A stretch of 64,000 nucleotides of DNA from Eledone cirrhosa (Eukaryota). Each line of letters opens with the position of its first letter. Within the stretch, counting starts at the first letter, position 1. Shown here in pieces: positions 1,052 to 56,648 of the stretch. The notes beneath the pieces were generated by a model. That model was not told the origin of the DNA. It did not search any database and worked only from the letters and a program-made list of their open reading frames with translations. The position numbers and the translations under genes are program-made. The stretch is from positions 31,806,001-31,870,000 of the forward strand of contig OZ024746.1 of the NCBI GenBank assembly GCA_964016885.1, given 5' to 3'.

Positions 1052-1155
1052 CAACACCACCTGATTGTCAAGAAGTCCTAAACAGAAATAAAACCAGAAC
1101 ATCGGGATATTATCTCATAGATCCTGATATTTCTGGACCAATGGAAGCAATTGAG
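1052..1155 (+). CDS. Exon 1 (window numbering), fibrinogen-like module 1
   Basis: ctccag|...|gtgag; [34 protein letters not shown]. Confidence 0.9.

Positions 1156-56648: not shown

Follow-up and report, generated by a model that had tools for sequence, protein, structure and literature searches.

Gene structure and protein architecture

The 64,000-nucleotide stretch of the Eledone cirrhosa genome analyzed here (contig OZ024746.1, positions 31,806,001 to 31,870,000; hereafter, the window) raises the question of what kind of protein joins a tandem array of Caspr-type modules to EGF domains and a VWD assembly, and whether such a protein builds polymers. The first-pass annotation had proposed that 35 exons splice into an intact partial reading frame of ~1830 amino acids, with seven tandem modules of 178-206 amino acids followed by three EGF domains and a VWD-C8-TIL assembly. 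Splicing used P0002 (XP_036357403), the Octopus sinensis ortholog, as a guide on the window extended by 200 kb at either end, and it bore this out: positions 1052-56648 hold exactly 35 exons with 1,833 open codons and only GT-AG introns. These are exons 7-41 of a 53-exon gene that spans OZ024746.1:31,790,264-31,888,696 on the plus strand, with 6 exons upstream and 12 downstream of the window. The complete gene model encodes 2,602 amino acids, all of its introns are GT-AG, and the absence of any stop or frameshift across the 53 exons rules out a pseudogene. The exon junctions are placed by homology; the acceptor of exon 13292-13412 is less certain, with an alternative at 13265, and either choice keeps the frame.

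The gene model shares 67% identity with P0002 from end to end, which argues against a chance assembly, 50% with two Logan proteins and 34-40% with the other 11 array proteins. Searches of the 3.0-Gb genome with exon queries yielded no second copy of the array and, with this copy count being a lower bound, the gene looks single-copy. In relatives, Logan contigs of 8.1-9.5 kb each encode whole chains (2,462-2,861 amino acids) and a limpet cDNA described below is likewise a single contig—supporting the proposed single transcript, and ruling out separate transcripts for the modules and the EGF/VWD part in those relatives. The Octopus vulgaris annotation splits the gene into 'mucus 2' and 'fibrillin-1-like'.

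The predicted chain starts with a signal peptide (by inspection) and five EGF domains, continues with seven modules (amino acids 234-1580) and three calcium-binding-type EGF (cbEGF) domains, and proceeds through a VWD domain with a GDPH motif, a C8-like segment, TIL, TILa, four EGF-like domains, two follistatin/Kazal repeats, a TSP1 domain and a third follistatin/Kazal repeat to a C-terminal cystine knot. This order agrees with the annotated idea of one secreted multidomain protein. The modules are 181-205 amino acids long, with a mutual identity of 23-35%, and phase-1 introns coincide with every module boundary. The array makes up about half of the chain, and it has no Pfam match in P0002. 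The C8-like segment, with 10 cysteines, is not called by Pfam, yet it aligns to the C8 of FCGBP; among solved structures, follistatin matches the Kazal-like region most closely, and one canonical cysteine is missing from the first Kazal-like repeat. The features within the window, all on the plus strand, are as follows.

1052-6400, plus strand: module 1 (predicted COLFI fold, amino acids 234-421), four exons at 1052-1155, 3241-3398, 4400-4505 and 6202-6400; DxD loop present
6791-8323, plus strand: module 2 (predicted COLFI fold, amino acids 423-618), three exons at 6791-6956, 7322-7445 and 8023-8323; its O. sinensis counterpart is the module whose structure was predicted
9026-14787, plus strand: module 3 (amino acids 620-800), five exons at 9026-9109, 9762-9850, 12806-12929, 13292-13412 and 14672-14787
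16511-20208, plus strand: module 4 (amino acids 798-997), four exons at 16511-16669, 17766-17842, 18596-18707 and 19954-20208; 14 cysteines
21896-23940, plus strand: module 5 (amino acids 999-1179), three exons at 21896-22032, 22895-23123 and 23773-23940; 8 cysteines, DxD loop lost
25866-27545, plus strand: module 6 (amino acids 1177-1381), three exons at 25866-26020, 26489-26617 and 27212-27545
28931-36939, plus strand: module 7 (amino acids 1383-1580), four exons at 28931-29056, 30327-30487, 35298-35446 and 36779-36939
37808-46967, plus strand: three calcium-binding-type EGF exons at 37808-37951, 42414-42533 and 46839-46967
47081-50634, plus strand: VWD domain, four exons at 47081-47301, 47677-47784, 49841-50011 and 50461-50634, the last of which also begins the C8-like segment
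47104-47115, plus strand: codons of the GDPH motif (amino acids 1720-1723), with two flanking cysteines
54856-55033, plus strand: second half of the C8-like segment
56440-56648, plus strand: TIL domain exon; the exons for TILa, EGFs, follistatin/Kazal, TSP1 and the cystine knot lie 10-26 kb beyond it

The absences listed in the first-pass annotation were confirmed. Pfam scans of the orthologs gave no match to LamG or discoidin domains, both of which were detected in the CNTNAP5 control; the gene model has no Gly-X-Y run, and its combined proline, threonine and serine content reaches at most 33% in any 60-residue window, with no PTS domain. In addition, ZP, laminin and collagen triple-helix domains were not found, and no hydrophobic anchor was seen upon inspection of the model, which contains 8.2% cysteine and 47 N-glycosylation sequons.

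The N-terminal EGF exons were found as one copy each in the upstream flank (window-relative positions -13000 to -449). In O. vulgaris P0001 and in O. sinensis isoform X1, a ~146-residue EGF unit is repeated in several additional tandem copies, and the EGF start is likewise expanded in Aplysia; the length of this stalk varies between species, and the heptad is constant.

The module is of Caspr type and has a predicted collagen C-propeptide fold

The modules had been labeled Caspr-type and fibrinogen-like, and only the first half of this label stood. A profile built from molluscan modules, with CNTNAP5 left out, matched residues 590-799 of salmon CNTNAP5 with 128.9 bits and covered the whole 'fibrinogen-like' domain of this protein, so that the designation as Caspr-type is correct; individual modules are 26-38% identical to the salmon CNTNAP5 module. 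At the sequence level, on the other hand, the match to fibrinogen extends only over profile positions 3-59 of 199, and that to collagen C-propeptides over positions 3-108.

Structure prediction was performed with AlphaFold2 on O. sinensis module 2 alone, using a 14-row alignment, with the other six modules assigned by homology. The resulting model (pLDDT 89, pTM 0.85) gave 17 Foldseek matches at E ≤0.001, the best 12 of which (E <1e-5) were all C-propeptides of procollagen I or III, with TM scores of ~0.6 vs. 0.30 over ~110 columns for fibrinogen. A wide structural search returned 5k31 with Z 15.0 and a root-mean-square deviation of 3.4 Å over 169 residues, with the next chain at Z 6.1; fibrinogen and ficolin domains match the module fold only in part (Z 5-6, up to 6.1). 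Moreover, the language-model neighbors of the module are the COLFI and GON clusters (0.93). The modules are therefore predicted to adopt the fold of the procollagen C-propeptide (COLFI), despite a sequence identity of 13-17%, and the label 'fibrinogen-like' is not supported; nor does the module match the full C-terminal globe of fibrinogen-related domains (FReDs). No solved structure of the Caspr 'fibrinogen-like' domain came up in a PDB sequence search, and a single-sequence PDB search with a gastropod-like array fragment had no match. By homology to the folded octopus module, rather than from a model of Caspr itself, our results suggest that the Caspr/CNTNAP domain also adopts the collagen C-propeptide fold and carries a conserved acidic loop.

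Collagen Asp59 and Asn61 are calcium ligands. The modules place a DxD loop at the site of the collagen D-P-N loop, within the calcium-binding base region, and they retain the equivalents of Cys41 and Cys73. In the procollagen I C-propeptide, calcium is bound by the base region, which has a Cys41-Cys73 bond within the chain and a Cys47-Cys64 bond between chains and is carried on a coiled-coil stalk (PMC5353611); the modules have neither this stalk nor equivalents of the inter-chain Cys47 and Cys64. In molluscs, the DxD loop is present in 10/10 chains at positions 1-4 and 6, in 4/10 at position 5 and in 0/10 at position 7, and at the third acidic calcium position an acidic residue is found in no more than 1-7 of 10 molluscs, depending on the module position. 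The number of array cysteines is even in 20/22 orthologs. Cysteine-to-cysteine linkers measure 10, 10, 6, 10, 6 and 10 residues in nine of eleven full arrays (the last three being 6, 10 and 6 in Saccoglossus), and a 1,187-residue fragment with five modules plus EGF was predicted with a pTM of 0.63; together, the near-invariant linkers and this score hint at a defined packing of the array.

The module shares with Caspr, CNTNAP and neurexin IV the full-length homology, the DxDG loop and the cysteine frame. The protein differs from Caspr and neurexin IV in that seven copies stand in tandem, in its predicted secretion, in the lack of discoidin, the four LamG domains and a transmembrane segment, and in a model that ends in a cystine knot. 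With the fibrillar procollagen C-propeptide (COLFI, PF01410), it shares the predicted fold, the base-region loop and the Cys41-Cys73 equivalent; it differs by lacking a Gly-X-Y helix, the stalk and Cys47/Cys64, by an extra cysteine-rich loop and by the tandem arrangement in one chain.

The module had also been described as a single copy in Caspr-type proteins, a view that our searches do not support. At E ≤0.001, the module profile matched 2,896 of 1.84 billion representatives; the 150 matches listed include Caspr-like proteins, a two-copy Link-CUB-SRCR protein from a frog along with three others of its kind, a crinoid short collagen, and sea-star proteins with three modules and VWD domains. 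Five vertebrate-like proteins (P0074, P0077, P0084, P0085—from the frog Pyxicephalus—and P0087) end in two tandem modules, and the four that were scanned contain Link-CUB-SRCR; they apparently form an uncharacterised family. The 3,748-residue Acanthaster protein P0073 (LOC110989137) combines three VWD domains, C8, TIL, SUEL lectins, discoidins and three modules; it is reminiscent of the sea-star footprint proteins Sfp1/Sfp2, and its module order differs from that of the heptad. P0165 of Antedon mediterranea is a short collagen with 21 consecutive Gly-X-Y triplets and one Caspr-type module at its end, an architecture suggesting that a collagen can use the module as its C-terminal domain.

Distribution and age of the seven-module array

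The exon query retrieved a single longer relative, the O. vulgaris protein 'mucus 2', and the module region of 'mucus 2' in turn retrieved 16 proteins among 3,960 candidates: 15 array proteins, the named ones molluscan, and salmon CNTNAP5. Seven modules were present in 20 of the 31 chains examined and more than seven in none, the remainder being partial or of other architecture. Named carriers of the array include octopus, oysters, scallop, clams, a chiton, Lottia, other gastropods and the nemertean Lineus.

Position-specific module profiles, built from ten molluscan or cephalopod-like chains, assigned modules to the expected position in Lineus (7/7), Saccoglossus (6/6), a chiton paralog (6/6) and two overlapping Macrostomum models (5/5 and 4/5). 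Nineteen control modules from Caspr-like, single-module, frog and sea-star proteins displayed no positional order, with margins of 0-23 bits. A module tree (55 of 118 modules) likewise clusters by position, with position 3 paraphyletic to position 5, and the Saccoglossus modules fall inside the positional clades with bootstrap values of 90 (position 1), 64 (2), 100 (4), 98 (5) and 100 (6). An AU test over 38 rows rejected a single Saccoglossus clade (p 1.7e-5), and single clades for the Lineus and window modules were rejected as well—ruling out an independent tandem expansion in each lineage. The N-terminal EGFs and module 1 are likewise shared by a Saccoglossus fragment, with 34% identity over 381 amino acids. 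The positional matching across molluscs, a nemertean, a flatworm and a hemichordate, together with the tree and the AU test, indicates that the seven-module cassette likely predates the protostome-deuterostome split; a fixed cassette of seven domains would thereby be dated to before that divergence.

Several relatives depart from the basic architecture. The chiton paralog P0007 and the flatworm Macrostomum protein P0066 have three C-type lectin domains N-terminal to the array, and in Saccoglossus P0209 modules 2 and 3 are separated by an inserted WSC domain. Neither a GDPH motif nor a Pfam match to VWD is present in the Macrostomum relative.

In the literature surveyed, mostly papers available without subscription, no description was found of the array, of the range of the family or of a COLFI fold for the Caspr domain, and no paper joined Caspr with C-propeptide, COLFI or COLF1. 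LOC105335200, LOTGIDRAFT_230443, K1QWY3, OWF37427, Mlig025420, LOC115209782 and XP_011437301 were not found mentioned there either.

A single VWD assembly and an odd cystine knot

The first-pass annotation had treated VWD-C8-TIL as a polymerization unit, an argument that fails since the protein contains one GDPH-type assembly nearest to FCGBP and lacks D1-D2-D3. The best solved match of the assembly is FCGBP; each of the 13 orthologs with a VWD match, out of 15 proteins scanned, has one VWD stretch, and GDPH stands in register in 24/31 chains. As described in PMC10880436, the GDPH motif of FCGBP cleaves itself and makes the domain more protease-resistant. The cysteine pair flanking GDPH is lost jointly in 2 of 22 orthologs, suggesting a disulfide across the cut. 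The one VWD, of GDPH type, is similar to FCGBP or mucin D4, and not to the polymerizing D1-D3 region.

The cystine knot has no Pfam match, and its cysteine pattern is kept in all 21 orthologs that reach it; the cysteine count is odd throughout (9 or 7, with two cysteines lost as a pair in three). In the PDB, the top two matches of this region are both to the VWF knot; they are weak (E 0.7-0.8), with the cysteines in register. Missing are the 12-residue loop of VWF and two of the three cysteines through which VWF dimerizes. The spare cysteine is most likely the first of the CC pair, at amino acid 2559. A second odd-cysteine region extends from TIL to the first follistatin repeat (amino acids 2009-2318 of P0002) in 21/22 orthologs. 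Gel mucins and VWF dimerize via the knot, and the N-terminal ends of MUC2 are linked in VWD3 (PMC10082768). A complex prediction for two cystine knots (P0002 2530-2612), in which the alignment was not used, scored 0.03 and speaks neither for nor against a dimer.

The protein shares with gel-forming mucins and VWF one VWD assembly (D4-like) that leads via a stalk to a terminal cystine knot, in which one cysteine is unpaired; it differs by lacking D1-D2-D'-D3, PTS, the VWC run and the long knot loop of VWF, and by a stalk made of EGF, follistatin and TSP1 domains. SCO-spondin and hemolectin, which combine three VWD domains, LDLa or discoidin and many TSP1 domains, contrast with the one VWD, the one TSP1 and the absence of LDLa and discoidin here. 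Similarity to FCGBP comprises the closest solved VWD-C8-TIL-E assembly, GDPH, the probable mucus location and the lack of a PTS body. However, FCGBP has 13 VWD domains (PMC10880436) vs. one here, with no long VWD-C8-TIL tandem, and our protein adds the COLFI-fold array, EGFs, follistatin/Kazal repeats, TSP1 and the cystine knot. The protein is a member of none of these groups—FCGBP, gel mucins, Caspr, collagens, FReDs or SCO-spondin—and, in its way of working, would come closest to FCGBP or to the C-terminal part of a gel mucin.

A limpet ortholog in pedal mucus

A role in mucus, one of the functions proposed in the first-pass annotation, gains support from the limpet pedal-mucus protein P-vulgata_2 (Unigene46021), detected in each of the three types of mucus and in three animals (Kang et al. 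2020, PMC7333891). It was selected among the highly ranked proteins, its FPKM was low (28) and it was not among the five probes with a distinct in situ pattern; the table of that study assigns no domain to the ~1,350-residue array (PMC7333891). The cDNA, parts of which were translated by hand, is collinear with Lottia P0056 and the window model from signal peptide to TSP1, with the N-terminal EGF, seven module starts, the Cys-flanked GDPH and TSP1 as landmarks. Counted by hand, ~94 of 135 residues are identical to the Lottia ortholog in a stretch of modules 5-6. The shared features comprise the signal peptide-EGF start, seven ordered modules, three cbEGF domains, the Cys-flanked GDPH VWD, EGFs, two Kazal-like repeats and TSP1. 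The contig ends within TSP1 with no stop seen, and the last follistatin repeat and the cystine knot are absent from it, which is why no knot is listed for P-vulgata_2.

On the basis of this collinearity, P-vulgata_2 is an ortholog of the window protein, and both are members of one P-vulgata_2 family; 'mucus 2', the O. vulgaris label, may go back to P-vulgata_2. The family is already known at the proteomic level, where the array was not recognised. Hence, the description as uncharacterised held for function and array, and not for the protein as such, detected and named by proteomics. Among the papers listed, the name P-vulgata_2 was found only in the original one, and the available parts of papers on scallop byssus, oyster single nuclei and oyster larvae contained no passage attributable to the family. 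Mucus proteins with VWD plus a knot are already a known kind; what the array now accounts for is the unannotated half of a protein from a strong natural wet adhesive.

Proposed mechanism and alternative explanations

The reading that we favor, by a slight balance of probability, is that of a protein secreted into mucus, self-cleaving at GDPH, dimerized C-terminally and cross-linking the gel via an array of seven COLFI-type folds. An N-terminal signal peptide would direct secretion; Asp-Pro cleavage in VWD would leave pieces held by disulfides and a more protease-resistant domain, as in FCGBP. The odd knot cysteine would form a tail-to-tail dimer, to which the EGF/follistatin region may contribute a second bond. 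Calcium bound by the cbEGF domains and by the DxD loops of modules 1-4 and 6 may stiffen the chain in seawater, and the two seven-module arms would bind other mucus or matrix proteins non-covalently. In this role, the protein would act like FCGBP: it would add cohesion as an accessory component and would not be a gel-forming mucin with a PTS body. Single modules, pairs and the heptad are recombinant targets for studying how invertebrate mucus coheres without a PTS domain.

A true network-forming polymer, in which odd cysteines link different chains or modules assemble in trans as calcium rises to give a gel or adhesive scaffold, appears unlikely. Two separate odd-cysteine regions would fit this alternative, as would a crinoid short collagen ending in the same module type and the trimerization of COLFI in procollagen, mainly via the base region in type I (PMC5353611)—the best-conserved part here. 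The three-module sea-star protein, moreover, has a VWD/lectin/discoidin set like that of Sfp1, which makes a footprint meshwork (PMC9382459). Yet D1-D2-D3 is absent, the N-terminal half has no odd cysteine in most orthologs, and the coiled-coil stalk, Cys47 and Cys64 of procollagen are missing from the modules. Both odd cysteines, besides, lie on the C-terminal side, where they could hold together a single parallel dimer in the manner of the MUC2 C-terminus (PMC10082768).

An internal matrix protein, as in connective tissue, basement membrane or a sensory membrane of the tectorin/otogelin type, possibly binding procollagen via its COLFI folds and only incidentally present in limpet mucus, is likewise doubtful. 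The strict conservation of number, order and linkers from mollusc to hemichordate would fit a structural partner better than a fast-evolving mucus body, and the VWD-TIL-EGF combination also occurs in zonadhesin and tectorin. The low FPKM and the lack of a distinct in situ pattern in the limpet foot (PMC7333891) point the same way, as does the failure to find the O. sinensis and O. vulgaris ortholog identifiers in the available part of a supplement to a proteome study on skin mucus from O. vulgaris (PMC10138644); P-vulgata_2 may be a minor or leaked mucus component. Against this, the limpet ortholog was detected in every mucus type in all three animals and was chosen from the highly ranked proteins (PMC7333891), and ZP, laminin and collagen triple-helix domains are absent.

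A bolder extension, which we consider rather improbable, is that the protein represents an ancestral bilaterian mucus scaffold—seven C-propeptide folds without a triple helix, forming a rigid cassette that assembles between chains in calcium-rich seawater, by a gel mechanism apart from mucin D3 and PTS. If so, the human CNTNAP domain would be a COLFI-type calcium-dependent binding module mislabelled as fibrinogen-like. Finally, a defense or signaling scaffold, with the array recognizing microbes like fibrinogen-related lectins or follistatin/Kazal and knot domains trapping proteases or TGF-beta-family ligands, is very improbable: follistatin is the closest match of the Kazal-like region and some relatives add C-type lectin domains N-terminally, but the fold match to fibrinogen/ficolin is only partial (TM 0.30; Z 5-6), the first Kazal-like repeat lacks a canonical cysteine, and immune FReDs diversify, unlike this conserved gene, which looks single-copy by a lower-bound count.

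Other elements of the locus

A weak match to a module exon (E 0.2, 28%) lies on another chromosome (G000:C4:368308998-368309228) and is possibly part of the neurexin IV/Caspr gene. Within the window, the intron between exons 50461-50634 and 54856-55033 contains a retrotransposon-like insertion at 51495-53117 on the minus strand (55% GC), where RNase H/RVT_3 and integrase zinc-finger pieces are spread over distinct open frames interrupted by stops. The plus-strand open frames 46099-46509 and 61808-62407, which by eye resemble non-LTR or Penelope-type retroelement remnants, had no Pfam match in the pieces scanned. Minisatellites occupy intronic positions 10378-10703 (29 bp), 15145-16323 (19/38 bp), 16671-17186 (16 bp) and 24478-24881 (46 bp), and a further intronic 46-bp minisatellite lies at 63715-64000; the one at 15145-16323 yields a spurious cysteine-rich open frame of 422 codons (15100-16365).
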